From Neisseria uirgultaei (GTDB lineage Bacteria > Pseudomonadota > Gammaproteobacteria > Burkholderiales > Neisseriaceae), in NCBI RefSeq assembly GCF_962719845.1, contig NZ_CAUIYF010000002.1, positions 122,667-154,666 on the forward strand: a stretch of DNA of 32,000 bases, in the 5' to 3' direction. Every line of letters begins with the position of its first letter. Position 1 is the first letter of the stretch. The position numbers and the translations under genes are program-made. The notes under the pieces are model-generated. The model was not told the DNA's origin, made no database searches, and saw nothing but the letters and a program-made list of their open reading frames with translations. Below, piece by piece: positions 4,650 through 28,548 of this stretch.

Positions 4650-5816
4650 ATGAATTTACACGAGTATCAGGCTAAAGAACTGCTGGCTGGCTACGGTTTG
4701 CCCGTACAAGGCGGTATTTTGGCACACAACGGCGAAGAAGCCGCTGCAGCTTACGACAAATTGGGCGGCAAATTCGCTGTTGTCAAAGCACAAGTACACG
4801 CCGGCGGCCGCGGTAAAGCGGGCGGCGTAAAAGTCGTTAAAAGCCGCGAAGAAGCTAAAGAAGTGGCTGAAAGCCTGATTGGCACCAACTTGGTAACTTA
4901 CCAAACCGATGCCAACGGCCAACCTGTCAACAGCGTTTTGGTTTGCGAAGACATGTATCCGGTTCAAACCGAGCTGTACTTGGGCGCAGTGGTTGACCGT
5001 TCTACCCGCCGCGTTACATTCATGGCTTCTACCGAAGGCGGCGTGGAAATCGAAAAAGTTGCTGCCGAAACTCCTGAAAAAATCTTCAAAGTAACCGTTG
5101 ATCCGCTGGTCGGCCTGCAACCTTGCCAAGCTCGCGAAGTTGCCTTCCAACTGGGCTTGAAAGACAAACAAATCAACGAGTTCGTCAAACTGATGACCGG
5201 CGCGTACAAAGCGTTTATCGAAAACGACTTCGCACTGTTTGAAGTAAACCCATTGGCAGTTCGCGAAAACGGCGCGCTCGCCTGCGTGGACGGCAAAATC
5301 GGTATCGACAGCAACGCCCTCTACCGACTGCCAAAAATCACCGAATTACGCGACAAATCCCAAGAAAACGAACGTGAGCTGAAAGCTTCCGAATTCGACC
5401 TGAACTATGTTGCCTTGGAAGGCAACATCGGCTGTATGGTTAATGGTGCCGGTTTGGCGATGGCTACTATGGACATCATCAAACTCAAAGGCGGCCAACC
5501 TGCCAACTTCTTGGACGTTGGCGGCGGCGCAACCAAAGACCGCGTGGTTGAAGCGTTCAAACTGATTCTGGAAGACAAATCCGTTAAAGGCGTATTGATC
5601 AATATCTTCGGCGGTATCGTACGTTGCGACATGATTGCGGAAGCCATCGTGGCAGCCGTTAAAGAAATCAACGTCAACGTTCCTGTCGTTGTTCGTTTGG
5701 AAGGTAACAACGCCGAACTCGGCGCGAAAATCCTGAACGAATCAGGTCTGAAACTGACTTCTGCAGACGGCCTGAATGACGCAGCCGAAAAAATTGTTGC
5801 AGCCGTAAACGCCTAA
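4650..5816 (+). CDS. sucC: Succinyl-CoA synthetase beta subunit
   Basis: The ATG at 4650 is preceded by AAGGAG (4638-4643). The canonical N-terminus [12 protein letters not shown] is present. The track ORF start at 4596 is an upstream in-frame extension. Confidence 0.95.
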
Positions 5817-7880: not shown

Positions 7881-8687
7881 ATTTTTTTCTTGCTTTTCAT
7901 ATTCCTCAAGTAAGTTTAAGTTATTACCATAAGCTGTTTTTTTATAGCGAATTAAATCAGTTGATGTTATTTCATCGTGAAGATGTTCAAAAAGATGGTA
8001 TTTCTCTATCAGTGGAGCAAATTTATCTTTTCCCCATTTAGATAGCCCACTATAAAACAGAAAAAACAATTCATCACTTGAGATTTGTGCACGTAGCATG
8101 TGTATATAAAAAGTTTTCTGCTCCTTACTTAATTTACTTTTATCTATATACTTTACTGCATGGTATATGCCTCTAAAATAATGCCCGAGAACTCTGTGTA
8201 AATATTCTTCATAAAAATTCTCATACTTTCCTATATTTCCTTTAGAATGCGAGGGAATTCTTTCAAGCTTAAAGTGATTTCTTAATATAATAAATACAAG
8301 CCGACCAGACACACCTTCTTGTATGTATAAATCTCGTTTATGTCCCTCAATTTTATAGGATACTTTTCCTTTAAGTAATTGAAGCCCATCAATGATGTTG
8401 TTGACTGTTTCAAGATGTTTAAACAGATGCTCTTCGGTTTGCCTAGCTTTTCTCTCTCTATTGCCAATATAAATTGCGATAAAAGCACCGCACATTGCAA
8501 GCCCTGAGAAGATAGCATTTAAACTTCCATAAGAATCTCCGTGCAAACCTAACATTTCTTTGCTTGGGGTCTCTATTTTAGTAGATAGCTGAATTTTCCA
8601 GTTTAGAATTTCTGGGTAATTCCACCACAATATGCCAATCAGAGCAAAAATGATAACTAACAAAATAGTCGAAATAAATTTATTCAT
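7860..8687 (-). CDS. AT-rich membrane protein resembling the 'putative phage abortive infection protein' (putAbiC-type) family
   Basis: The 275-aa ORF has an N-terminal TM helix, then GLHGDSYGSLNAIFSGLAMCGAFIAIY (second TM). Later come HYFRGIYHAVKYID and MLRAQISSDELFFLFYSGLSKWGKDKFAPLIEKYHLFEHL, which I recall from that family. Base composition differs sharply from the flanks. Confidence 0.5.
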   Translation of the reverse strand: MNKFISTILLVIIFALIGILWWNYPEILNWKIQLSTKIETPSKEMLGLHGDSYGSLNAIFSGLAMCGAFIAIYIGNRERKARQTEEHLFKHLETVNNIIDGLQLLKGKVSYKIEGHKRDLYIQEGVSGRLVFIILRNHFKLERIPSHSKGNIGKYENFYEEYLHRVLGHYFRGIYHAVKYIDKSKLSKEQKTFYIHMLRAQISSDELFFLFYSGLSKWGKDKFAPLIEKYHLFEHLHDEITSTDLIRYKKTAYGNNLNLLEEYEKQEKNQQKSKP

Positions 8688-12559: not shown

Positions 12560-13420
12560 CCATCATTCACACGAATGAGGAAGTTTGGTTTTTTGAATTT
12601 TTGCTAATGTTCACACCGTTATGTTCACGAAAATGGGAATCTGGAAATTTAACGTTACAGTGATTTATCGGAAACGGCTGAAACCGAACGAATTGGATTC
12701 CCGCCTGCGCGGGAATGACGACTCATTAGTTACCTAAAACTTAAAAAACAGAAACCTTTACGCCGTCATTCCCACGAAAGTGGGAATCCGGGAACTTAAC
12801 GTTACGGTGATTTATCAGAAATAACAGAAACCGAACGAATTGGATTCCCGCCTGCGCGGGAATGACAACTCATTAGTTACCTAAAACTTAAAAAACGGAA
12901 ACCTTTACGTCGTCATTCCCACGAAAGTGGGAATCCGGGAACTTAACGTTACAGTGATTTATCAGAAATAACAGAAACCGAACGAATTGGATTCCCGCCT
13001 GCGCGGGAATGACGACTCATTAGTTACCTAAAACTTAAAAAACAGAAACCTTTACACTGCCATTCCCACGAAAAGTGGGAATCCGGGAACTTAACGTTAC
13101 AGTGATTTATCGGAAACGGCTGAAACCGAACGAATTGGATTCCCGCCTGCGCGGGAATGACGACTTATTAGTTACCTAACACTTAAAAAACAGAAACCTT
13201 TACGCCGTCATTCCCACGAAAGTGGGAATCTAGAACCCAAATGCTAAGGCGATTTATCGGAAACGGCTGAAACCGAATGAATTGGATTCTCGCCTGCGCG
13301 GGAATGATGGGATCTTGGGTTTTTGCTTTTGATTTTTCTGCTTTTGCGAGAATGACGGCGTGAAAGCAAGAATGATGAAACAAAGAAAATGGGAATGATG
13401 GCATAGTGGTTTGTTCTTTG
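12560..13420. repeat. Neisserial intergenic mosaic element (NIME) array: ~147-bp-period units each carrying two dRS3 repeats (ATTCCC-N8-GGGAAT)
   Basis: dRS3 with spacer GCCTGCGC occurs at 12697, 12844, 12991, 13139 and (degenerate) 13286. dRS3 with spacer ACGAAAGT occurs at 12768, 12915, 13062 (N9) and 13210. Degenerate copies sit at both ends. Confidence 0.9.
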
Positions 13421-17958: not shown

Positions 17959-18387
17959 GTGTTTCAGGGTTAAAAGAATGGAGAGGGCAATTTATTTATA
18001 TAAAAACTTTTGGGGCTGTAAAGGAGTAAAGATTGCAGTTGCAACGTGTGGTAGAGTACGGGTGAAGATGGTAAAACTTATAACAGCGGAGCCTATTCGA
18101 TTGTGCATAACAAGGATTTTATTGGTAATAGATCGACAATGTGGATACCGCCATTTTTCTTGTTAGGAATAATGGCACTACACAAGGTACATGTAAGGGG
18201 TTTTGCTATCCGCATAGCAGTTATTTTGCAGAAGTGCCTGAGCAGTATCAAAGAGATAAAAATGGGAATATTAAAATGGAAAATGGGAAAAACTTTAAAG
18301 AAATCAGGTATAAGAAAGGTACAGTTGAATCTGTTATTTCTCAATTGAATCTATAATATATTTTGAGACTGTACTAGAACAGCAGAT

Positions 18388-18642
18388 ATGTTACCCTTGA
18401 AATATGAAGATAATGTACTGAAAATTAAAGAAAAAATATAGAAAGAACTACTCCGCTTTTTTGTGCTGGAAGTTACCGCCCGATATAAGGCTTCAATAAC
18501 TGCGCCACTTACCAAAAATCAGAAAAAAGCTTTTCCTGAAATTGAAAGAACGGGAGCAACAGTGGTCGGCAAGGGGAAACCAGGCTATCCAAAGGGGACC
18601 AAAATTAAGCCTACTAAAGTTATCATTGAAAGGAAAGGATAA
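18388..18642 (+). pseudogene. Remnant of a polymorphic-toxin C-terminal domain with an in-frame TAG (18439-18441)
   Basis: My translation is MLPLKYEDNVLKIKEKI*KELLRFFVLEVTARYKASITAPLTKNQKKAFPEIERTGATVVGKGKPGYPKGTKIKPTKVIIERKG*. The tail recalls PD-(D/E)xK-type toxin C-termini (E-V-K…LT-x-NQ). The stop overlaps the next ATG (TAATG). Confidence 0.4.
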
Positions 18643-18965
18643 TGTCTATTTTGGAAGAGAATGTAATTGATTCAGCCTCTATTGAAAACGGAATACTCAT
18701 ATTAACTATTTCTGATCATTTAAAATGGGATAACGAGCATTTGTTTTTGTTGCAAGAAAAAATAAATTCATATATTCAATATATTGAATCAGGTCAAATT
18801 TTTGAAGATTTTGGAGAAAGTAGCTATGAGACTATTGAAATACAGCTTATATATAAATATAAACCAAATGAAAATTATAGAAAATTTTTATATCGCCTAG
18901 AAGGTGCTTTATTAAAACTTAAATTACGGTTTTCTCATGGAACTATCTCATATTTTTATAGTTGA
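18642..18965 (+). CDS. Putative cognate immunity protein (small, acidic, AT-rich)
   Basis: The 107-aa ORF has a start codon that overlaps the stop of the toxin remnant (TAATG), the classic toxin-immunity coupling. I recognise no family. Confidence 0.5.
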   Translation: MSILEENVIDSASIENGILILTISDHLKWDNEHLFLLQEKINSYIQYIESGQIFEDFGESSYETIEIQLIYKYKPNENYRKFLYRLEGALLKLKLRFSHGTISYFYS

Positions 18966-19113
18966 AAAGTAAATACTCTCTTTATCACTTCGAGCACAGG
19001 CAAGCCATAACTTATATAAACCCTGAAATCAAAAGAAGCAAATCGTAACACGCGGCGTCATATCCCTTAAGTCATACTTATACTGAAATATATAAGCCTG
19101 AGGAATTTACGCT

Positions 19114-19267
19114 ATGGTTAAGAAAGTAAATATATTGAATATTGCAGAAATTTTTTATGAGAGTAAAAATAAAATTTAGATATAGTCGTTATCTGTCTGC
19201 CGATGGAACAAAATGGATAAGACATGGTTTGTTCTATGTATCTTACGAAAATGGTAATATTGTTTAG
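19114..19267 (+). pseudogene. Frameshifted fragment of a MORN-variant/YwqK-like immunity gene
   Basis: MVKKVNILNIAEIFYESKNKI is followed by a stop. The next frame reads RYSRYLSADGTKWIRHGLFYVSYENGNIV* (a G-x-W…Y-x-NG repeat pattern). Confidence 0.25.
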
Positions 19268-19277
19268 GCAAAAAATT

Positions 19278-19727
19278 ATGAAAATTTTTTATTTTAGTTC
19301 AAAAAAAATAGAAAATTGTGTAAACATTATCTCATCAAATCTGAATCGAAAACAAGTTCGTGCAATATTTAGTTCTGATGTACAAGAAATTTATAAGTCA
19401 TCATACTCTCGGGTTCCTATGGATGTTTTTCCCGAATTGAATATCCATTGTTTTTATGATGATAAAAATCAGCTTGAAGCGATAGAGATATTTGAACCAA
19501 ATAAGTTTTTTTTAGAAGATATTTCTTTTAATTGGCTTGGAAAAATTAATGATGAAATAATAAGCTATCTTTATAAGAGTGGAATTAATGATTTTGAAAT
19601 TGATGATTTGGGTATTAGGCTTCTTAATATTCCTGTTTCAACTATAATCAATTCAATAGGTAAAGTAGAATGTTGTTATTTAGATTTTTCAAATAGAGAC
19701 ACGAAATTTTATGTAAAACAAGTGTAG
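19278..19727 (+). CDS. Hypothetical AT-rich protein, probable orphan immunity protein
   Basis: The likely start is ATG 19278 (MKIFYFSSKK…), which lies within track ORF 19224-19727. The gene is AT-rich, sits among toxin/immunity remnants and has no signal peptide. Confidence 0.45.
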   Translation: MKIFYFSSKKIENCVNIISSNLNRKQVRAIFSSDVQEIYKSSYSRVPMDVFPELNIHCFYDDKNQLEAIEIFEPNKFFLEDISFNWLGKINDEIISYLYKSGINDFEIDDLGIRLLNIPVSTIINSIGKVECCYLDFSNRDTKFYVKQV

Positions 19728-19870
19728 ATTTGAGGTCAAGATCCAATCTACGCTTACTCCGGTATCAGCGTCTCCATCATCTACGACGAATAAAAAATCC
19801 GCCATCTGACCAAGTAAACGCCTACCTTGCCGAAAACCAAAGCCGCGACCACACCTGGAAAAAAAGACGG

Positions 19871-19998
19871 CATAGCAAGCCGTAGCTCATATGAAACCTA
19901 AACTCAATACGTAGGATGTGCGGAATGCACATATGTAGTTCTCAAAGTTTGAGCTAAAAGGCCGTCTGAAACAACAAGAATACGTTTCAGACGGCCTT
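19871..19998. repeat. Direct repeat copy A (module-end element: …SYET* tail, GTAG-headed palindrome, CTCAAAGTTTGAG palindrome, inverted DUS pair)
   Basis: By hand alignment it matches 28292-28409 at roughly 85% identity, with a 10-bp insertion (AAGCCGTAGC) in copy A. The inverted DUS pair at 19958-19998 is perfect here. Confidence 0.8.
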
Positions 19999-20098
19999 AT
20001 ATATTTCGCTTATATATTTCGCTTCCGTTAAGGGAGTGTAAAATACATTTAAAACCCCTTGATAAATTCGATTAACCGACATTTGAGAGGGATCTAAA

Positions 20099-21016
20099 AT
20101 GTTTTTACAGCAACAAATTGAGTTTCAGCAGCAAGCGAACGCGAAGCGTGCCGCGCTTCCTTGTCTTAATAGTAACAATTGCATTGAGACCGCAAACAGC
20201 GGCGAAATCAAGCAGTTGCAAAGTCAGCATGAAAACCGTAAAGCGAACACGCTGAACGAGTTTTCTACTTCTTACAAAAAATCCACTACTGCTCTAGAAA
20301 TGAACGTTAAAGTGTTCATTGAAGCCTTTGGCCTGAACAAAGTCGGCTTTTTAACCCTGACCTTTGCCGATGACGTAATCGACCCGAAAGAAGCGCAACG
20401 CCGTTTCCACAGCTTGAGGACTAACTTTCTCAAACGCCACTTCCCCGAGTACATCGCTGTTTATGAGCGTACAAAAAAAGGTCGTATTCATTTCCATCTA
20501 ATCGTAAATACCCGTGTCGATATACGGCGTGGCCTGAATTTCCGCGAAATCGCCGCAGGTCGCTACAGCTCTGCCAATCCAGCATTGCGCAAACTGTGGG
20601 CATTGCTCCGCGAAAACGTCCACAAATACGGCTTTGGCCGTACTGAACTGCTGCCCGTAAAAACCAACATCAAAGGCTTGGCGCGGTATGTGTCCAAGTA
20701 CATCAGTAAACACATCAACAGCCGCCTGCCTGAAGACAAGGGCTATCGGCTTGTTCGTACTAGCATGGACAAAAAATGCGTATGGAAAGTAGCAAACAGC
20801 AATTTTGCTTTTGTGTCCAAAGGCTCGAAAGAGTGGAGACGCAAGTTAAAAAAATGGGTTGAGCGGGTAGAAAGCTACCTGAACCGCGTAGCAGAGTGGA
20901 AATACCGCGCAGCCCTACCCAGAATTACCCAAGATAATTACAACACTGTCTTGGCCTTTGTCCTAAGCCCGAAATGGGCATTTAAAAACCGCGAAATCAT
21001 CTTAAACATGGAGTAA
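20099..21016 (+). CDS. Phage rolling-circle replication initiator (HUH endonuclease, RstA/pII analogue)
   Basis: GAGAGGGA RBS. It has the HUH motif GRIHFHLIV and the Tyr motif ARYVSKYISKH, and it is the first gene of the phage module. Confidence 0.8.
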   Translation: MFLQQQIEFQQQANAKRAALPCLNSNNCIETANSGEIKQLQSQHENRKANTLNEFSTSYKKSTTALEMNVKVFIEAFGLNKVGFLTLTFADDVIDPKEAQRRFHSLRTNFLKRHFPEYIAVYERTKKGRIHFHLIVNTRVDIRRGLNFREIAAGRYSSANPALRKLWALLRENVHKYGFGRTELLPVKTNIKGLARYVSKYISKHINSRLPEDKGYRLVRTSMDKKCVWKVANSNFAFVSKGSKEWRRKLKKWVERVESYLNRVAEWKYRAALPRITQDNYNTVLAFVLSPKWAFKNREIILNME

Positions 21017-21021
21017 CCAAC

Positions 21022-21291
21022 ATGAGTGAAAACCAAACCCCGAAACAAGGCTTTTTTGTAATCGCGTCATTTGACCGCGAATTTGTCAAAGAGCGCAAAA
21101 ACGCAGACGGCACATACGTCAAAGTCCACTATCTAGGCCTGCTCGTCCGCAGTGAAGATGGCACGCAGCTTTGCGAAGTGCGTACAAAGAACCCTGAAAA
21201 ATACCAGCATTTCAAGCGCGATCAAGTCGTAACGCTGGAAATCCACCTGCGCGCCTTTAAAGACAACGTCTATTACTCTGACGAACGTTAA
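21022..21291 (+). CDS. Putative phage ssDNA-binding protein (pV analogue)
   Basis: This 89-aa ORF lies directly after Rep. The call rests on size and position only. Confidence 0.5.
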   Translation: MSENQTPKQGFFVIASFDREFVKERKNADGTYVKVHYLGLLVRSEDGTQLCEVRTKNPEKYQHFKRDQVVTLEIHLRAFKDNVYYSDER

Positions 21292-21386
21292 CGCACAAGC
21301 AAAATTCAGGGGTTGGCCGTTTCCCCTGAATCAGACCCCTAAAAACGGCCACAACATTTTTTTAACTCACTTAAAGGAAAAAAATC

Positions 21387-21611
21387 ATGAATATCATGAA
21401 ACTGAAAACCGCAGCGAGTAAAGCCGCTGCAACCGTAGCAGTAGCCGTAATGTCTGCTCCCGCTTGGGCTGATGGCACACCGTTGGAAGCAGCACAAAAC
21501 GAAATCGGCAGCCTGAAAACAGGCATTGCAGCCCTGGGCGGCGTGATTCTTGGCGTAGCCGTTGCAATCGTAACCATCGGCGTAATTAAACGCGCAGTAT
21601 CCAAAGCCTAA
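21387..21611 (+). CDS. Major coat protein (pVIII analogue)
   Basis: It has a signal peptide ending AWA|DG, an amphipathic N-terminus, a hydrophobic core GGVILGVAVAIVTIGVI and a basic C-terminus KRAVSKA. Confidence 0.8.
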   Translation: MNIMKLKTAASKAAATVAVAVMSAPAWADGTPLEAAQNEIGSLKTGIAALGGVILGVAVAIVTIGVIKRAVSKA

Positions 21612-21620
21612 GGAAACGAC

Positions 21621-21935
21621 ATGGGTTATCAAGTAGGCAGAATATGCTATTTCACAGAAGACGAAGCAGTGAACATCGTGATGACCCAAGTCGTACCGAC
21701 GATAGATAAAGACGGGGTGTTACATCACCCCGTTTTTAACGGCAGGACTTGGACATACAAACAGCAGGGGCATGAATACCCCGTAAAACCCACATTTCCC
21801 CAATGCGACCCAAACGAATACACAAACGCAGGCAGGGAAGTAGGAATAGCCCTGTTGGGCGCGTTTGCCGTCGTTTGGATTATCCGCGTAGTGCTTTCAA
21901 CCTTGAACATACTGAAAGAAAGAGATGAAGAATAA
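21621..21935 (+). CDS. Phage hypothetical protein with a C-terminal TM anchor (minor coat candidate)
   Basis: The 104-aa ORF has a C-terminal hydrophobic segment IALLGAFAVVWIIRVVL and overlaps the next ORF by 11 nt. Confidence 0.55.
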   Translation: MGYQVGRICYFTEDEAVNIVMTQVVPTIDKDGVLHHPVFNGRTWTYKQQGHEYPVKPTFPQCDPNEYTNAGREVGIALLGAFAVVWIIRVVLSTLNILKERDEE

Positions 21936-23667
21936 TGCTCCCCGAAATTTTATTTTTAATTGCCGCCGCCCCCTACCTGTTCTGCTGCTGGGCGTTGTCG
22001 TTCCTCATGCTCAAGTAAACGCAGACGCGCAACTACCCCCACCTGCACACCACCAAAACGTAGGCTTTCCATCAGCCCAAAAACTCGAGCAAATGGGATA
22101 CAACAGAGAGACAGGCGTTTGGAAAGTACAAACAAACCCAACAGGCAAACCGACAGTAAGCAGCGGAGGCGGCCAAATCACGGGGACGCAGAACCAGCGT
22201 GTAACCGTAACGGACGCGTACGGCAACAAAGCGAACGTGAACACCCAAGTAACGCAGCGCGTTAATATCGGACGTGTTGAAGCTGCTATTGGTGGCACGT
22301 TAGCAGGTTTGTCAGCGGCAGGCGGTGCTATTGGTTCTGATTATGCCGCTTGGGCATATAGAGATATTAAAGAAGGAAGCTGGGGCGACGCAGCTAGAAA
22401 TACAGTTGGCGCATTGTTATCAGGTCTAGAAGCGTTGGATATAACTGGACTTGGTAGCGGGATTAATAATTTTTTAGATAAAACAGGTATTAGAAGCAGT
22501 TCTAGCGGTGAACAATTAGGACAAATAGCCGCCCAACAGCAACAAGCCCAAGAGCAAGCACAAAAATCAGGAGACTTCAGAGGAGCAGTAGGCTACGCCG
22601 TAGCAGCCAAAGCCGCAAAAGTAGCCGGAGAAGTAGCGAGAGCTGAAAAATTCGAAAAAGAGAAACTCAAGCCCAAAAATGAAAACGGCAAAGTCTTAAA
22701 ACCCTTTCTAATTAGTTTTCAAGAAACAGGTTACAGATACGCAGCAAACGGAAACGGCGGTGAATTACTTGAACCAGAGGTTAAATGGGTGACTGCGTAT
22801 TTAGAAAATGATGGGGGTCGTTATATTTATGGATTTTCGTATAGTCAAAAAGACTGGGGCGAAAGCGTAGATCTTAATATTGAGGGTTTTAAAACAAGTT
22901 ACAAATTTAAGCACAAAGATACTCCAAGACATATATCGAACGGTGTTTATAGTGGTTATTATGATATTTCCTTAGTGGTAAAAGCTTACCCAACAAATTC
23001 CAGTGGCATAAAAATAGTACCTGACCCGAATCCCAAAGATTTCCAACTAACCCAACAGGAAATTTTAGACATTCTCAAGAGCATGCTTGAGAACCAACAA
23101 ACCAACCATAACGAACTAATGAACCAGCTCGCCAAAATGGGCAACGTCGTACCCGATTCGACAACATCGACCGAGTTCACACCGGCAACGGCTATTACTG
23201 ACCCTTATACTCCGTCAGGCTCAAATACACCACAGCAGACCCAAATCACGATAAACAAAGACGGCAGCGTAACAACAAGCGTTATTCCCCGTTCCGACCT
23301 CGTGCCGAACAGCCCACAAGCCCCAACGCGAATCCCGTTGATACCAAACAACCCAAGCACACCTATCACACCCGATGATCCGACCGTGCCAAACAAGCCC
23401 AAAGAAGACCAACCACCGCAGGAAAACACAGCCTATGAAGACCCCAACATACCCACCCAAACCGTAGATTTAGACTTTAAACCAGCCGATATATTTTCAG
23501 TTGACGGCGTATGCCCCGAACCTAGAAGCGTAGATTTCGGCATGTTCGGACAACATGAATTTTCATATGACCCCCTATGCGATTTTGCCCGAAAACTAAG
23601 ACCGATTTTGATACTTATCACAATCGTATCCTGCTCCTTTTTCGTTTATTCATCACTGAAAGACTAA
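21925..23667 (+). CDS. tspB: TspB-like adsorption/minor coat protein (pIII analogue)
   Basis: The 580-aa ORF has an N-terminal signal-like segment, a Gly/Ala-rich region, a Pro-rich tract (…PNSPQAPTRIPLIPNNPSTPITPDDPTVPNKPKEDQPPQ…) and a C-terminal TM anchor. The architecture and position match Nf ORF6/TspB. Confidence 0.7.
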   Translation: MKNNAPRNFIFNCRRPLPVLLLGVVVPHAQVNADAQLPPPAHHQNVGFPSAQKLEQMGYNRETGVWKVQTNPTGKPTVSSGGGQITGTQNQRVTVTDAYGNKANVNTQVTQRVNIGRVEAAIGGTLAGLSAAGGAIGSDYAAWAYRDIKEGSWGDAARNTVGALLSGLEALDITGLGSGINNFLDKTGIRSSSSGEQLGQIAAQQQQAQEQAQKSGDFRGAVGYAVAAKAAKVAGEVARAEKFEKEKLKPKNENGKVLKPFLISFQETGYRYAANGNGGELLEPEVKWVTAYLENDGGRYIYGFSYSQKDWGESVDLNIEGFKTSYKFKHKDTPRHISNGVYSGYYDISLVVKAYPTNSSGIKIVPDPNPKDFQLTQQEILDILKSMLENQQTNHNELMNQLAKMGNVVPDSTTSTEFTPATAITDPYTPSGSNTPQQTQITINKDGSVTTSVIPRSDLVPNSPQAPTRIPLIPNNPSTPITPDDPTVPNKPKEDQPPQENTAYEDPNIPTQTVDLDFKPADIFSVDGVCPEPRSVDFGMFGQHEFSYDPLCDFARKLRPILILITIVSCSFFVYSSLKD

Positions 23668-23668
23668 A

Positions 23669-23950
23669 ATGAATATTGGGAACATCATAACCGCGGTACT
23701 GATGACCGTAGCAGGCAGACTAATCGCCGCGTTTGGTCTGTCATTTGTAACCTACGTAGGCCTAAACGAAGTACAGAGCCGTATAGTTGCGGCCATTGCC
23801 GAAAACCTGAACAGCATACCGAAAGAAGCCTTACAAATTGCCTATATCGCAGGTTTGGGCGTAGTGCTTAACTGGATAATCGGCGCATTTGCCTTTGTCA
23901 TTTCAACAAAAAGCCTGACGAAGCTTGCCGCAGGCATATCAAAAAAATAG
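23669..23950 (+). CDS. pVI-like small membrane protein
   Basis: The 93-aa ORF has several hydrophobic helices and sits between the adsorption protein and the Zot-like gene. Confidence 0.6.
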   Translation: MNIGNIITAVLMTVAGRLIAAFGLSFVTYVGLNEVQSRIVAAIAENLNSIPKEALQIAYIAGLGVVLNWIIGAFAFVISTKSLTKLAAGISKK

Positions 23951-23962
23951 AGAGATTAAGCC

Positions 23963-25042
23963 ATGTTATATCTGTTCACAGGCGTACCCGGTTCGGGCAA
24001 AACCTTGAACGTTGTTTCAATGTTAGCCAAACGTCCCGACCTCAAAAACCGCCCCTTGTTTATAGACGGGATTCCAGATTTACAAATCCCACACGAACCA
24101 ATCCCCGAGGGAGAAAGCATCCAAACGTGGCCGAAGTGGGCGCCGACAGGCGCAATCATCGTTGTTGACGAATGTCAGCGCATCTTTAGGCCGCGCCCGA
24201 GTGGCTCGAAAGTACCCGACTACGTTTCAGAACTAGAAACCCATCGCCATCGCGGCCTAGATTTCTTCTTCATAACCCAACACCCCCGATTAATTGATGC
24301 CAACCTAAGAAGCCTGATAGAGCATCACACCCACGTAAGCAAGACCGAACTAGGCGTAAGGCGTAAACTAGAATGGAGTACGGGCGGCGCGAAGAACCCA
24401 GAAAGCAGGGCAGACGTAAGAGACGCACTCAAAAGCGTGTACAAGCTGGATAAAAGCGTGTACGGCCTATACAAATCAGCCGAAGAACACACCAAAATCA
24501 AAACAGGCCGCAGCAAAGTCTTTTACCTGATTCCTGTCATACTTTTGATGATAATCGGTGGCCTTTGGGGCTTTTATGACTTTTGGGGAGACTTCAAAAA
24601 AATCACACCGAACCCCACGGCGCAGCAGGAAGTTGCCGCGCCAGCGGCAAGCCCCGAAACGGACGGCACGGTGGGGGCGCAAGCCCAAAACGGGACGCAC
24701 GGGACGGGGCAATACCCCGAAGCGCAGACAACGCCCGAGCCGCCGCAGCATCGGAAACACCTGACTGAAGACGATTACAAGCCCGCCATAGACGGGCAAC
24801 CCCACACCGCCCCGATATATGACCAATACAACAAAGCAGTAAAAACCATGCCCTATCCAGTCGCTTGCGTCAAAAACGCAAACCGCTGTACATGCTACAC
24901 AGACCAAGGAACAGCGATAAAAGGTTTCAGTAAAACCCAATGTTTTGAGTTCGTAGAGAACGGCATATACAATCCGTATAAAGCAGCGGCGGCCACACCG
25001 ACACCGACGGCAGCGGCAGAGCCGAAAGAGAGCGGCGGCTAA
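23963..25042 (+). CDS. Zot-like assembly ATPase (pI analogue)
   Basis: It has the Walker A motif GVPGSGKT, Walker B IVVDECQ and a central TM segment VFYLIPVILLMIIGGLWGFY. Confidence 0.85.
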   Translation: MLYLFTGVPGSGKTLNVVSMLAKRPDLKNRPLFIDGIPDLQIPHEPIPEGESIQTWPKWAPTGAIIVVDECQRIFRPRPSGSKVPDYVSELETHRHRGLDFFFITQHPRLIDANLRSLIEHHTHVSKTELGVRRKLEWSTGGAKNPESRADVRDALKSVYKLDKSVYGLYKSAEEHTKIKTGRSKVFYLIPVILLMIIGGLWGFYDFWGDFKKITPNPTAQQEVAAPAASPETDGTVGAQAQNGTHGTGQYPEAQTTPEPPQHRKHLTEDDYKPAIDGQPHTAPIYDQYNKAVKTMPYPVACVKNANRCTCYTDQGTAIKGFSKTQCFEFVENGIYNPYKAAAATPTPTAAAEPKESGG

Positions 25043-25134
25043 GTGCTGACGATGGGCGGAGAGAGTCCGCAAAATCTTATGTATGACGGGTATAATGAAA
25101 AAAAGTTAAGTAATCAAGGTGCAAAAGTAGGGAT

Positions 25135-25290
25135 ATGAATTGTTTATTATCATTCTTTCTGGGTATTGTTGTAGCGACGACATATGAACGTAAAGGTTGG
25201 AAAGGCTTAATTGGCATGCGATGGCCTTTTAAAATAGTCCTTTTATTAATTGTAACGCTTGGAATATTTCTACTAACCCAAAACCTCTAA
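25135..25290 (+). CDS. Small (51 aa) two-TM hydrophobic protein, possible phage moron (below the ORF-track size cut-off)
   Basis: My translation is MNCLLSFFLGIVVATTYERKGWKGLIGMRWPFKIVLLLIVTLGIFLLTQNL*. A TATAAT lies about 40 nt upstream. The segment is more AT-rich than the phage core. Confidence 0.35.
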   Translation: MNCLLSFFLGIVVATTYERKGWKGLIGMRWPFKIVLLLIVTLGIFLLTQNL

Positions 25291-25314
25291 TTCCCCCGCC
25301 CACTTTCCCACAAG

Positions 25315-25390
25315 TCAAGGGGAGGATGTCCAGAAAGATTTGTAAAGACAGCTTTATCGTCTTTATAAATCTTTTTGGATACCCCTTGAC
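25315..25390. repeat. Imperfect long inverted repeat (~32-35-bp arms) at the start of the recombinase leader
   Basis: GTCAAGGGGAGGATGTCCAGAAAGATTTGTAAAGAC (25315-25349) pairs with GTCTTTATAAATCTTTTTGGATACCCCTTGAC (25359-25390). Confidence 0.8.
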
Positions 25391-25399
25391 GCTAACCCA

Positions 25400-25678
25400 C
25401 CCAAAAACGCTTTAAAGAAAGGTTGGTGCGGTTTTTTGCGCCAACCCCTGCCACATGGCGAATGTCGCCGAAGGCAAGCAAACGATAAGCTTCAAGCCCT
25501 GAATGAGTAAATCAGCCCATTGAGGGCTTGGCGTTTGACGAAACACCAAGTAAAGCCCACGACTTCGAAAGTACGGCCAAAGCGTACAGCTTGTAAGAAA
25601 GATAGAAGCGTGGGCTTTCGTACATCTTAAGTTTGAACACTATCTAGGGCAAAAAGCCCGAATTAATAAGGTTAAACC
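25400..25678 (+). ncRNA. Candidate structured non-coding RNA (bridge-RNA-like guide) in the 5' leader of the IS110-family recombinase gene - hypothesis only
   Basis: No ORF is present. Consecutive perfect stems lie at 25421-25446, 25457-25469, 25493-25530 (8 bp), 25552-25618 (10 bp, with inner stem 25571-25587) and 25647-25659. Short matches to the dRS3 core are CCCACGA 25556, CGAAAGT 25566 and CTTTCGT 25615. Confidence 0.3.
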
Positions 25679-26629
25679 ATGTACTTAGGAATAGACGTTT
25701 CAAAGCTCACAATAGATTGTTGTTTGATTGCAGACGGTCAAAATCATCAAAAGAAGTTTCAGAACAACAAAGGAGGATTTGAACAATTAATAAATTGGCT
25801 ACAAAGTCATAAAGTAACCGATAAGCTCCATTGCGTGTGCGAAGCAACAGGCACATATTACGAAGCATTAGCCGAATATCTTTATTTACGATACACAATT
25901 ACCGTAGAGAATCCACGAAAGATAAAAGGATATGCGATAGCAGAACTACAACGATCAAAAACAGATACACAAGACGCAAAGTTGATAGCCCAATATTGCC
26001 AAGACCGAAAGCACAAATTAAAAGCATGGAAACCACCGGCAAAAGAACAGAAGCAATTACAGGAAATCGCCCGATATTTAGACTATCTGAAACAGCAACG
26101 CGCAATAGAAAAAGCCAAACAACACGAAGCACCCGACTATATCAAATCCCACATTCAAACAACTATTTCAAATCTGACAGCACAAATACAGATAGTCAAA
26201 AAGCAATTACTCCAGTTCTACAAAGACAATCCAAGTTACAACAACCTTCGCAAAAGGCTGAAAACAATAACAGGCATAGGCGAGCAAGCGACAGCCGTAT
26301 TGCTATCAACCTATAAAAGACATGATTTTAAAAATGCAAAACAGTTCACGGTTTATCTAGGCCTAGACCCTAGAAAATATCAATCAGGAACAAGCGTAAA
26401 CGGAAAAAGCAGAATATCAAAAATCGGAAGTTCGGAAATACGGAAAAGCCTTTATATGCCTGCACTTGTTGCATATCGTTGTAATGCCTTCCCTGAATTT
26501 GTAGGCCGTCTGAAAAACAAGGGAAAACATATAAAGCTGATATTAATCGCCATAATGCGGAAACTGGCGGTAATAGCGTTTACGCTGTTGAAGAACGGCC
26601 AAGATTTCCAAGTGGAAAGATATAAATAG
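25679..26629 (+). CDS. IS110-family DEDD recombinase/transposase (PivNM/Irg-like)
   Basis: It has the N-terminal RuvC-like motif MYLGIDVSK…, a C-terminal Transposase_20-type region (LKTITGIGEQATAVLLS…GLDPRKYQSGTSVNGKSRISKIGSSEIRKSLYMPALVA) and an AAGG RBS. Confidence 0.88.
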   Translation: MYLGIDVSKLTIDCCLIADGQNHQKKFQNNKGGFEQLINWLQSHKVTDKLHCVCEATGTYYEALAEYLYLRYTITVENPRKIKGYAIAELQRSKTDTQDAKLIAQYCQDRKHKLKAWKPPAKEQKQLQEIARYLDYLKQQRAIEKAKQHEAPDYIKSHIQTTISNLTAQIQIVKKQLLQFYKDNPSYNNLRKRLKTITGIGEQATAVLLSTYKRHDFKNAKQFTVYLGLDPRKYQSGTSVNGKSRISKIGSSEIRKSLYMPALVAYRCNAFPEFVGRLKNKGKHIKLILIAIMRKLAVIAFTLLKNGQDFQVERYK

Positions 26630-26954
26630 ATTTAACGCGGCCAAAATCCTGGTAAATTTTCAATTTATTGAAAATAGAACATAAATTAAAACATCAAATC
26701 CATTCAAAACAAAACAAACACCCCGAACAAGTCGGGGTGCGGATACTTGCAACGTCAAGAAATGTAAGTTTATTTGACTGTGCAATACACTATCTTTCTT
26801 TTAACAAATCGTCACAGCAATCAGACAAAAGCAACCTACATCACCTTATAAATTGAAACTGTCCAATCAATCGTAGTTCGGCAAATATGTCGAAGCCCTC
26901 AAGCGCGAAGTCGAAAAACGCAAAGGCAGAAAAATCAGCAGCCAAGAAGCGGCA

Positions 26955-27851
26955 ATGAGAATCCGCAGGCAGATACTGCGTTGGGTGGACAAAGGTTCCC
27001 AAGACGGCTATACCGACCAAAGCGTCATATCCCTTATCGGAATGAAAGGCGAAGACAAAGCCTTGGGTTATACTTGGGACTACCGCAACTACGGCACAAG
27101 AAATCCGCAAGCCTACAACGATCCGAAGCTGTTTGAGGAATACCGCCGACAGGACAAACCCGAATACCGCAACCTGACCTGGCTGCACAGCGGGACGAAA
27201 GACACCAAAATCAGGCAGAAAGAGCGGAAAAACGAAGAGTTTGCACTGAACGTTGCCGAAGGACTGACGAGCCTTGTCAACCCCAATCCGAGGATAAAAG
27301 TCCCGATTCTTGCAGGCATCCGCAACCTGAAAAACATCAAGCCGACCGTTACCGGCAGCGATCCCTTATTGGCGGGTGCGGGGAATATCCGTATCCCTGC
27401 AAACGGTAATGTTGCGAAGGGGGGCAGGATTCCGGATACGGCATTGGCGTCGAAGAGTCATCAAAAGAATGATTTGGGAGCATCTAAAGGGCAGGTGGGT
27501 AGGTCTTCTGTACCTGTACCTGAAACTGTAGAAATTAAGTTTGATAATAAAGTTGTTACTTATAAATCGAACTCAAAACACACTCCAGGTGGCTCAGGTT
27601 GGAATCCAAAAGCCGGAAAAGAACCGAAGAATTCACTTGACTTATTTATAAAGTCTAAACCAATACCATCATCTCCAACAGTTCGATTTTCAAAAGACGA
27701 ATATGGAAATATTCATCGATTTTCAGGGGATCATAATAATCAATGGCACTGGAATGGAAGTACAGGTGATGCCAATAATCCATTAAAATTAAACAATAAG
27801 GTTAAGTTTGATTTAAGAAATTTAGGTTGGAAAGAAAAGGTTTTAAAATGA
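26955..27851 (+). CDS. Orphan (5'-truncated) polymorphic-toxin C-terminal cassette: conserved GC-normal N-part plus an AT-rich variable toxin domain
   Basis: The frame is open from 26877 (FGKYVEALKREVEKRKGRKISSQEAA-MRIRRQ…) with no signal peptide or RBS, and composition switches to AT-rich at about 27465. It ends …EYGNIHRFSGDHNNQWHWNGSTGD…LGWKEKVLK*, with the stop overlapping the next ATG (ATGA). Confidence 0.6.
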   Translation: MRIRRQILRWVDKGSQDGYTDQSVISLIGMKGEDKALGYTWDYRNYGTRNPQAYNDPKLFEEYRRQDKPEYRNLTWLHSGTKDTKIRQKERKNEEFALNVAEGLTSLVNPNPRIKVPILAGIRNLKNIKPTVTGSDPLLAGAGNIRIPANGNVAKGGRIPDTALASKSHQKNDLGASKGQVGRSSVPVPETVEIKFDNKVVTYKSNSKHTPGGSGWNPKAGKEPKNSLDLFIKSKPIPSSPTVRFSKDEYGNIHRFSGDHNNQWHWNGSTGDANNPLKLNNKVKFDLRNLGWKEKVLK

Positions 27852-28312
27852 TTTTTGGAAATAAACTAGATTTTTTCGTACAAACAGACATATTAATTAG
27901 AGATGGAGATTATTGCATGGGTCCCCTTGTATTTTGGATTGATGATAAAGCATATCCGGGGGAAGGGGCTGTGTTAACGTTAAACAGTGAAATAATGACT
28001 TTAAAAAATAATTTAGATAAGGCGTTATGTAAAAAGTTTCCTGGAAGTAATCTTTCATTGCATAATATTGATTTTGAGAGAGAAGAGGAAAGTGAAGAAA
28101 ATATCATGTATTGTTATCTTTCGGAGCTGGGGGATTATGGTTTAAGAATGATGTGTGAGATTGTAGAGGATAAATTTAGGCTGTTTTACTCTCTGCATGA
28201 AGGGTCTTTTAAGCTGAAGGAAATTTCTTTACAGTATTATAGGAATATAATAGTTGAGTTATTCAAATTTATTTCAGTTCAATCAGCAAACCATAGCCCA
28301 TATGAAACCTAA
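27848..28312 (+). CDS. Putative cognate immunity protein
   Basis: The ATG at 27848 overlaps the toxin stop (ATGA). The N-terminus MIFGNKLDFFVQTDILIRDGDYCMGPLVFWIDDKAYPGEG… recalls Imm42-type immunity proteins, though that recollection is weak. The protein is acidic and cytoplasmic. Confidence 0.55.
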   Translation: MIFGNKLDFFVQTDILIRDGDYCMGPLVFWIDDKAYPGEGAVLTLNSEIMTLKNNLDKALCKKFPGSNLSLHNIDFEREEESEENIMYCYLSELGDYGLRMMCEIVEDKFRLFYSLHEGSFKLKEISLQYYRNIIVELFKFISVQSANHSPYET

Positions 28313-28409
28313 ACTCAACAAGTAGCATATGTGCGGAACGCATGTATGCGCTTCTCAAGGTTTGAGCTAAGAGCGGTCTGAAAACCGTGAACCCGTTTCA
28401 GATGGCCTT
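28292..28409. repeat. Direct repeat copy B of the module-end element (degenerate DUS pair)
   Basis: See copy A (19871-19998). Here the DUS arms are mutated (GCGGTCTGAA / TTCAGATGGC). The repeat begins inside the last codons (…SPYET*) of the immunity ORF. Confidence 0.8.
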
Positions 28410-28416
28410 TATTTAA

Positions 28417-28548
28417 CGTTACCGAGCCAGCGGGTTACAAAGTGCAGTCAATGCCGCTGCGCCCTATGCCTCCGAAGCCATAGGCAAGACATTTGGACAC
28501 GGTGAAAACAAAAACGAAATCGTCCAAACTGTCGGACACTTCCTTTTA
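28417..28548 (+). pseudogene. Short fragment of the conserved pre-toxin region of a MafB/TpsA(CdiA)-class secreted toxin
   Basis: My translation is …LQSAVNAAAPYASEAIGKTFGHGENKNEIVQTVGHFLL…. The A-A-A-P-Y…I-G…G-x-x-x-N…H-x-x-L pattern is typical of these proteins. The fragment has no start and runs into the glyA terminator. Confidence 0.35.

Follow-up and report, generated by a model that had tools for sequence, protein, structure and literature searches.

How do the filamentous phages of Neisseria choose the places at which they enter the host chromosome? For the Nf1-Nf4 and MDA prophages of the pathogenic species, integration at dRS3 repeats by the phages' own IS110-family transposase has been proposed (Kawai et al. 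2005; Bille et al. 2005; PMC7058167), and none of the papers that we searched invoked an RNA guide for this step; the bridge RNAs of IS110 elements have been known since 2024 (PMC11208160). We took up the question with a 32,000-nt stretch of Neisseria uirgultaei DNA (contig NZ_CAUIYF010000002.1; here called the window, in whose numbering all coordinates are given), which carries a 6.8-kb inovirus prophage at 19998-26795 with an IS110-type recombinase gene near its right end. An earlier interpretation of this DNA made from its letters alone, called here the sequence-only reading, had suggested that the leader of the recombinase gene encodes a bridge-type guide RNA programmed for dRS3. Comparative evidence supported the guide RNA itself, and the prophage junctions together with an empty site from a metagenome (contig L052) placed the target of this phage at a terminator formed by DNA uptake sequences (DUS). 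We consider it highly likely from these comparisons that the prophage integrates by a bridge module of the type described for the insertion sequence IS621 and not by a conventional integrase. The proximal ~190 nt of the leader are most likely the gene for a bridge guide RNA of the IS621 type, and integration is very probably RNA-guided, with the guide in this phage programmed for the DUS terminator and not for dRS3. We favor a guide RNA because the module is homologous to that of IS621, the stems of the RNA covary, its loops are complementary to the flanks of the prophage and covary with them, the junctions are precise, and an empty site exists.

The recombinase (316 AA; 25679-26629, + strand) was identified as an IS110-group DEDD/serine enzyme by Pfam and phmmer. 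Both IS110 domains were present (PF01548 at 6.8e-25 and PF02371 at 1.1e-22), and the protein matched IS621 (8wt6, E 1.6e-59) and ISCro4 (9t56, E 2.8e-58) over the full length. The catalytic motifs GID, CEATG, KTDTxDA, and SRxSK, which hold D11, E60, D102, D105, and S241, were the same as in IS621. The full-length matches and the identical motifs place the recombinase in the IS110 group, members of which encode the guide RNA upstream of the gene (PMC11208160). The same recombinase was found in circular inovirus genomes from human saliva and in prophages of N. lactamica and N. flavescens, and the gene order was kept across many phage lineages.

In the circular relatives the genes run in the order Zot, leader, recombinase, about 170 nt, and Rep, so the attachment site is expected 3' of the recombinase and not at 25290, where the leader begins. 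The donor site (attP, the junction of the circular phage) indeed lies 166 nt past the stop codon of the recombinase gene. The right ends of the prophages all read A(C/T)ACTAT-CT and diverged beyond it, and the left ends all began with TATATATT or TGTATATT, with CT in front. The attP sequence is ACACTAT-CT-TATATATT, and the circular form of the 97% family (L026) reads ACACTAT-CT/TATATATTACGCC, the slash marking the junction here and below. In the window, attL is TTCAGACGGC-CT/TATATATTTCGC with the core at 19996-19997, and attR is ACACTAT-CT/TTCTTTTAAC with the core at 26794-26795. The empty attB in contig L052 joins the window flanks precisely (...TTTCAGACGGCCT/TTCTTTTAACAAATCG), with flank identities to the window of 88% over 128 nt on one side and 93% over 46 nt on the other. 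A CT core was present at both junctions (...GGC-CT/TATAT at attL and ...TAT-CT/TTCTT at attR, compared to GGCCT/TTCTT in L052), and there was no other target duplication. With attB, attP, attL, and attR all defined, integration as read from these sequences is conservative around the CT core, like that of IS621.

The left target (LT) and core at attL (19986-19997, + strand) read TTCAGACGGC-CT, which is the reverse complement of the 12-mer AG-DUS AGGCCGTCTGAA and forms the 3' arm of a DUS inverted-repeat terminator; the dialect names AG-DUS and AG-mucDUS are those of PMC7371117. The same left target (CAGACGGC-CT) was found at seven independent attL sites. On the chromosomal side of attR, the right target (RT) TTCTTTT occupies 26796-26802 (+ strand) and is contiguous with LT in the empty site. 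The right donor (RD), which is the left end of the phage at 19998-20023 (+ strand), reads TATATATTTCGCT, is tandemly duplicated, and supplies a -10 element, TATATT. The right end of the phage (26630-26795, + strand) comprises an A-rich tract, a hairpin at 26718-26740, a -35 element TTGACT at 26774-26779, and the left donor (LD) with the core, ACACTAT-CT, at 26787-26795.

Two further features of the attachment region were noted. The unit duplicated at attL is the opening 13 nt of the prophage (TATATATTTCGCT, with CT as its end), and a similar duplication with a 16-nt unit was seen in a relative (L016, 2447-2478); such a tandem duplication may have been left behind by a second exchange that took place at the next CT. 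In addition, a ~130-nt element ending in a DUS hairpin occurs in two copies about 80% identical to each other. The copy at 19874-19998 is the occupied attB, and the copy at 28282-28414 ends in CAGATGGC-CT/TTATTT, an unoccupied near-cognate site with one mismatch per side.

Between the stop codon of a small open reading frame (ORF) at 25290 and the recombinase ATG at 25679, a stretch of ~390 nt, the + strand has no ORF of 40 AA or more, in agreement with the sequence-only reading. That reading had treated the whole leader as one unit, and here our comparisons disagreed with it. DNA homology began at 25309-25311 in comparisons with phages of related backbones and at 25482-25488 in comparisons with other backbones (OR148973 and N. 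lactamica L004), and it ended at 26796-26808 in all comparisons. From these limits, the constant unit comprises the recombinase gene with ~190 nt of leader in front of it and 166 nt behind it: 25482-25678 was always present with the recombinase, and 25309-25480 was linked to the backbone, being common only to some phage backbones. The left end of IS621, at 191 bp, is of the same size as the proximal part of the leader.

The candidate bridge RNA (about 190 nt; 25490-25678, + strand, as are all of its elements) was delimited by the minimal recombinase-linked segment, a covariance model, and covariation. Its layout is that of IS621, with a 5' stem-loop in front of two hairpins that have internal loops, plus one extra small hairpin. 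The 5' stem-loop (helix 1, 25494-25529; 9-10 of 13 pairs compensatory) is followed by the small second hairpin (helix 2, 25530-25547), which is absent from IS621. The target-binding loop hairpin (25552-25618) has an outer stem AAAGCCCACG/CGUGGGCUUU plus CUUC/GAAG (helix 3, 13 of 14 pairs compensatory) and encloses an inner hairpin, AAGC-GUACA-GCUU (helix 4, 25580-25592; 3-4 of 4 pairs compensatory). The donor-binding loop hairpin (25631-25677) has a basal stem GUUUGA/UUAAAC (helix 5) and an inner hairpin GGGC-AAAAA-GCCC (helix 6, 25647-25659), and its 3' side overlaps the ribosome-binding site. In two relatives (OR148969 and OR148975; at 1401 of L011 and 1375 of L012), the true start is the ATG after the donor loop. 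The train of stems listed in the sequence-only reading exists (25314-25390, 25421-25446, ~25453-25474, 25494-25529, 25552-25618, and 25647-25659). The nested stem at 25571-25587 was not conserved. We rejected this stem as the inner hairpin of the target loop; it is specific to the window sequence, and AAGC/GCUU covaries instead.

A covariance model (R1) was constructed from 18 close leaders with a hand-drawn structure. It matched at full length, on the + strand only, and directly 5' of recombinases 40-56% identical, with E values of 1e-11 to 1e-31. In the alignments fitted to the model, 93.7-96.2% of the cells were paired, 32-34 of the 47 pairs were compensatory, and none of 500 shuffles reached the score; the covariation score was 0.35-0.50, compared to at most 0.11 when the 3' partners were slid as a control. 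A plain MAFFT alignment of eight diverse leaders, analyzed unfitted with RNAalifold, recovered the same helices (the 5' stem-loop, the target hairpin with its inner hairpin, and the donor hairpin), with 23 of 41 pairs compensatory, so that the check on stem covariation suggested in the sequence-only reading came out in favor of a structured RNA. Folding was also far more stable than that of shuffled sequences, with z = -8.9 for RNA 25291-25690 and z = -5.4 for RNA 25490-25681.

Under the published rules for bridge RNAs, each loop carries on its 5' side the top strand of the left half-site and the core and on its 3' side a stretch antisense to core and right half-site, and each right guide is followed by two bases, called handshake guides, that pair with the other DNA at its positions 6-7 (PMC11208160, PMC11208158). 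The loops of the candidate RNA follow this scheme. In the donor loop, the left donor guide (LDG) ACACUAUCU at 25637-25645 is identical to LD and the core at 26787-26795, and the right donor guide (RDG) AUAAG at 25666-25670 is antisense to CTTAT, that is, to CT and the TAT of the left end; the GU that follows (25671-25672) pairs with G6 and C7 of LT, one of the two pairs being a wobble. In the target loop, the left target guide (LTG) ACGGCC at 25573-25578 has the same sense as LT and the first core base (ACGGC-C), which is the DUS end, and the right target guide (RTG) AAGAAAG at 25595-25601 is antisense to CTTTCTT, the core and RT; the AUAG that follows (25602-25605) is antisense to CTAT, the last bases of LD. 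The second handshake base did not fit in L039 or L003. We read the donor loop as specifying attP, because the LDG equals the right end with the CT core and AUAAG is antisense to CT and the left end, and the target loop as specifying the chromosomal site ...TTCAGACGGC-CT-TTCTT, because ACGGCC is the end of the AG-DUS and AAGAAAG is antisense to CT and TTCTT. Judged against shuffled leaders, the 11-nt antisense match of the RTG with its handshake (AAGAAAGAUAG, 25595-25605) to attR had a P of about 0.002, and the 9-mer match of the LDG had a P of about 0.013. In IS621 (L008), which served as a positive control, the same k-mer search recovered the known LDG and RTG. The donor loops of the two systems clearly resemble each other, with ACAGUAUCA...CAAGGU in IS621 and ACACUAUCU...UAAGGU in the phage.

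If the loops are guides, their sequences should change with the sites at which relatives are inserted, a check that the sequence-only reading had also proposed. Among leaders ~95% identical to each other, the four most variable columns were 25595-25598, inside the RTG. There were eight RTG variants among 18 distinct leaders, and the five with known flanks tracked them: AAGAAAG was observed with CT-TTCTT, AGCAAAG with CT-TTGCT, UGAAAAG with CT-TTTCA, AAAAAAG with CT-TTTTT, and CAUCAAG with CT-TGATG. Across 11 distinct sites, the predicted and observed RT agreed at 51 of 55 positions (permutation P = 2e-4). The LTG switched with the class of repeat. ACGGCC went with AG-DUS ends (the seven independent attL sites), and ACGACC, in a lineage 54% identical, went with AG-mucDUS ends (TTCAGACGAC-CT) at two sites; L003 carried ACGGCCU. 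In a lineage 55% identical (L050 and L051), LTG CCCGCC and RTG CGCGCAG were associated with dRS3, ATTCCCGC-CT-GCGCGGGAAT, and the junctions of L050 (ATTCCCGC-CT/TATATATT and ACACTAT-CT/GCGCGGGAAT) rebuild the Nf1-subtype dRS3. Programming for dRS3 was thus misassigned to the window phage and fits this sister lineage, and the dRS3-matched guide of L050 would supply the missing mechanism for the Nf phages that target dRS3. The donor guides varied in the same manner. The LDG tracked LD in five lineages (ACACTATCT, ATACTATCT, ATATCATCT, ATACCATCT, and, in IS621, ACAGTATCT), and the RDG tracked RD, with AUAAG opposite TATAT and AUACAAG opposite TGTAT (L003 and L009). From these patterns we think it likely, with somewhat less assurance than for the window phage itself, that a radiation of Neisseria filamentous phages uses the IS110 bridge module as its integrase and switches sites through a few guide bases, the left guide following the DUS dialect (AG-DUS or AG-mucDUS) or dRS3 and the hypervariable right guide picking one among thousands of repeat copies.

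Two side observations concern the variable parts of the RNA. The linker between the loop hairpins (25628-25629) was a second small variable hotspot in the close-family leaders, reading UA, AC, or GA. In the circular genome L010 (OR148974), the right guide with its handshake, AGGAAAAGAUA, is complementary to an 11-nt site of the phage's own, TATCTTTTCCT, at about 2677 and about 115 nt from attP; this match could be due to chance or could be a self-recombination site.

Several points weigh against an RNA-guided mechanism of this kind. The whole case is comparative. The LTG is only 6 nt long and its next base, A25579, mismatches the core T, as the wild-type LDG of IS621 likewise mismatches its core T9; when compared with shuffled leaders, neither the LTG match nor the RDG match reached significance in the window by itself. 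The basal stem of the donor loop (helix 5) was the weakest, with 79-84% paired, and the R1 model scored the IS621 bridge RNA (L008) at 6.7 bits (E about 2), which is not significant, at the right coordinates (102-289). Alignments A2 and A3, on which covariation was counted, had been fitted to the model, and sites within one lineage are not phylogenetically independent. No sigma-70-like promoter was found just 5' of the RNA in the window or in L001; the RNA could arise from read-through and processing or from a non-consensus promoter. Some insertion sites also misfit the guides. Five relatives (L016, L018, L019, L020, and L023) had a non-DUS left flank, TTTAAAAC-CT, and one RT mismatch; they share an insertion, with attL at about 2447 and attR at about 10117 in L016, that looks like an off-target event. 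L034 (RTG AAAAAAG, attR at 5547) was found at the TTGCT site of another variant, with two RT mismatches. For N. lactamica L045 (attR at about 10200), which has a dRS3-programmed guide, neither guide fits the site, which would fit the right guide of a different phage type (L046, leader at 8119-8323). Such misfits could reflect off-target events, a co-resident RNA acting in trans, or prophages swapping modules. The association between guides and flanks stands in spite of them, but it is not absolute.

These misfits, and the shortness of the LTG and RDG matches, speak for the older view of Piv/IS110 enzymes, in which the protein alone recognizes the site, the leader is a 5' untranslated region, and the att-like repeats are DNA binding sites or due to chance. 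We regard this as very unlikely. The closest characterized homologues of the recombinase (E 1e-59) require a bridge RNA, and the sense and antisense pattern, the handshake bases, and the positions of the loops all obey the published rules. Moreover, the stems covary, which is not required of DNA binding sites, and changes in the guides track changes in the targets.

The distal part of the leader raised a different alternative. It holds a 77-nt near-perfect hairpin (25314-25390, + strand), a phage-backbone element with two compensatory changes relative to L001 (OR148970), and two further backbone hairpins (25421-25446 and ~25453-25474, + strand) that are absent from L002 and L004. The 77-nt hairpin lies outside the homology that the window has with L002 and L004, which carry unrelated large hairpins at the place of 25314-25390. 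Ff-type phages have an intergenic region after the assembly gene. By comparison with Ff-type phages, 25314-25474, a backbone feature apart from the recombinase module, probably represents packaging-signal or origin-type hairpins of the single-stranded genome. It could be argued that all of the stem-loops of the leader are an ordinary intergenic region of this sort, acting in single-stranded DNA for packaging or as an origin, with no guide RNA. The region does follow the assembly gene, the 77-nt hairpin is of the size of a packaging signal, folding as DNA gave z = -6.3 for 25305-25480 against shuffles, other backbones have large hairpins of their own at this place, and G-T pairs are possible in the packaged + strand. 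This explanation fits 25314-25474 but not 25490-25678, which travels with the recombinase, has the loop layout of IS621, and has unpaired loops that match and covary with the att sites, a property for which a DNA origin gives no reason; for the leader as a whole we therefore find it very improbable. N. lactamica L004 was considered as a stand-alone insertion-sequence copy of the module and was rejected, as it has a Zot gene and another large hairpin upstream. An Rfam scan of the leader gave nothing at threshold apart from microRNA-like scores for the 77-nt hairpin, a negative that is uninformative, since the IS621 bridge RNA itself (L008, 113-289) gave no match in Rfam 15 and Rfam can thus neither detect nor exclude bridge RNAs.

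The sequence-only reading had favored a leader that works over its entire ~390 nt as one dRS3-programmed guide RNA, with a half-site at 25290 marking the attachment region. There was reason to look at dRS3. The array reported in that reading is real, with eight pattern hits compared to 1.4 expected at 12697-13305 of the window, Nf1 phages have been reported at dRS3, the sister lineage has a dRS3-matched guide, and the strings CCCACGA, CGAAAG, and CGTGGG do occur in the leader. The junctions and the empty site, however, identify a DUS terminator as the target, and with up to two mismatches allowed, the dRS3 pattern was found in the window only at 12697-13305 and not near the phage. The dRS3 flanks (ATTCCCNN-CT-NNNNGGGAAT) are absent at the prophage, which is flanked by TTCAGACGGC-CT and TTCTTTTAAC. 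As for the strings taken to be pieces of a guide, they do not fall on the guides: CCCACGA and CGTGGG are opposite strands in the conserved outer stem of one hairpin, and CGAAAG lies at the base of the 5' loop. The supposed half-site at 25290-25309 has only the hexamer ATTCCC in common with dRS3, its right half being TTTCCC and not GGGAAT, and it was not conserved in close relatives. We rejected this stretch as attP, given that the circular relatives continue uninterrupted through 25290 and carry attP 3' of the recombinase, and the distal 170 nt of the leader are outside the module. A single dRS3-programmed leader is therefore extremely unlikely for this phage. Within the array, four dRS3 copies read exactly ATTCCCGCCTGCGCGGGAAT and a fifth is off by one base; the exact copies fully match the guide stretches of the L050 type (CCCGCC and CTGCGCG) and are unoccupied in the window.

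Hardly any weight can be given to the last alternative, in which the recombinase and RNA are a passenger insertion sequence and the phage integrates by other means such as host XerCD (IS110 elements are common passengers, and XerCD/dif is used by many inoviruses), since the donor sequences read by the RNA are the exact prophage ends 6.8 kb apart, no left end of the CT-RD type lies beside the RNA, the LD-CT-RD junction of circular genomes is situated between recombinase and Rep, the empty site shows a precise rejoining of the flanks, and the gene order is kept across many phage lineages.

Returning to the bridge module, its likeness to IS621 and other IS110-group elements (Durrant et al. 2024, PMC11208160; Hiraizumi et al. 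2024, PMC11208158) extends to the homologous recombinase, the catalytic motifs, an RNA directly 5' of the gene, same-sense left guides and antisense right guides, the CT core, and identical handshake bases (AU in the target loop and GU in the donor loop). The donor sites are alike (ACACTAT-CT-TATAT in the phage and ACAGTAT-CT-TGTAT in IS621), and both right ends have a hairpin and a -35 element, with the -10 on the other side of the junction. The systems differ in that IS621 is a 1.3-kb insertion sequence and the mobile unit here is a 6.8-kb filamentous phage, in which about 5.5 kb of phage genes separate the left end and the junction promoter from the RNA. The compact size of the IS110 group (about 1.2-1.6 kb, with the left end holding the RNA) is consequently not seen in the phage, the RNA of which lies about 5.5 kb from the left end. 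The phage RNA also differs by the small hairpin that separates its 5' stem-loop from the target loop, its LTG is only 6-7 nt long, and its target is a DUS terminator in place of the repetitive extragenic palindromic (REP) element used by IS621. Overall, the locus has most of the defining features of an IS110-group bridge system.

The IS1111-group seekRNA (Siddiquee et al. 2024, PMC11187229) is likewise an RNA guide for a DEDD transposase of the same family. In IS1111 elements the RNA is downstream, the right end is long, and there are subterminal inverted repeats of 7-17 bp, whereas in the phage the RNA is upstream and the right end is 166 nt; the set of IS1111-group features was not found, the model matching upstream only and the protein being closest to IS110-group enzymes. 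An IS1111-style downstream RNA in 26630-26876 was considered and rejected, as the short right end contains a single hairpin and the -35, homology stops at 26796, and there was no model match. Expanded IS110 loci with cargo (bioRxiv 10.64898/2026.08.14.744561) resemble the phage in that a recombinase and a bridge RNA mobilize multi-kilobase DNA and the guides match the flanks. Those loci carry mainly resistance or plasmid-like genes, and the mobility of the whole unit falls with size, compared to a complete self-replicating virus here that brings along a circular donor form of its own; that study makes no mention of inoviruses. Another mobile element of commensal Neisseria, ICENmu (PMC7371117), also makes use of the DUS, with AG-mucDUS in its att site and an influence of dialect, but with a protein integrase and a 21-bp att site in place of an RNA guide. 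The Nf1-Nf4 and MDA phages share with the window phage the phage type, the gene order, the position of the transposase at the right end, crossover at a CT, and chromosomal targets that are multi-copy repeats; they differ in using dRS3 where the window phage targets AG-DUS terminators. In a literature search that was short on subscription journals, and so is not proof of absence, we found no paper on a bridge RNA in phage integration or on DUS targeting by a filamentous phage.

By homology with IS621, the module would consist of the guide RNA (25490-25678), the recombinase (25679-26629), and the 166-nt right end. A recombinase tetramer on the RNA would pair attP with attB, cut after the CT core, and exchange strands, and the whole 6.8-kb replicative form would be inserted just past the terminator hairpin. 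Excision would be carried out by the same complex with less efficiency. Consensus matches also suggest, as in IS110 elements, a sigma-70 promoter, with its -35 in the right end and its -10 in the left end, that would exist only in the circular form and be split on integration. The circular genomes L001 and L026 contain this junction promoter (TTGACT or TTGACC, an 18-nt spacer, and TATATT; 10/12), and in the prophage it is split; it would face the phage replication gene, with the guide RNA 5.5 kb further down the same strand. It is a matter of speculation that landing past the terminator hairpin shields the prophage from read-through.

The remainder of the prophage supports its assignment to a filamentous phage, as the sequence-only reading had recognized. 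All phage genes lie on the + strand, and Pfam identified Rep (20099-21016, PF23343), coat protein B (21387-21611), a TspB-like adsorption protein (21925-23667), a DUF2523/G6P-like protein (23669-23950), and Zot, an assembly ATPase-like protein (23963-25042), giving the Inoviridae gene set of PF23343, PF05356, PF05616, PF10734, and PF05707 on one strand. A small ORF of 51 codons (25135-25290, + strand) follows, and 3' of it are the hairpins, the candidate bridge RNA, the recombinase, and the right end; the layout is collinear with circular saliva inoviruses. The recombinase gene holds a perfect 12-mer AG-DUS (AGGCCGTCTGAA) at 26503-26514, so that the phage DNA bears the uptake signal of its host; the flank of this copy does not fit the right guide, and the copy is not a self-target. 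The host chromosome is of the Neisseria type, with 33 copies of the 10-mer DUS in 32 kb, of which the AG-DUS form accounts for 15. The prophage is inside a low-GC (0.33-0.45) island between trpD and glyA (17960-19990 and 26796-28500) that codes for orphan immunity-type proteins (DUF6572 at 18642-18965 and Imm42 at 27827-28312). The ORF at 26955-27851 was considered as a truncated Rep of a tandem phage and rejected, as similarity was absent and it is part of the flanking immunity-gene island.

If the bridge module operates as proposed, it would provide a mechanism for a question that has been open since 2005, the choice of site by Neisseria filamentous phages, among them relatives of the meningococcal phage that is associated with disease. 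Recombination guided by a bridge RNA would then serve a virus as its lysogeny system and not only insertion sequences, and the phages would represent a natural and ongoing viral reprogramming of an RNA-guided recombinase. The natural series of guides with matched sites (seven to eight right-guide variants and three or four left-guide classes) constitutes a specificity data set for an enzyme family that is being engineered for genome editing. For the biology of Neisseria, targeting of the DUS would tie phage integration to the self-recognition signal that the host uses for transformation and to its terminators, and placement at a terminator would silence the split promoter of the prophage.

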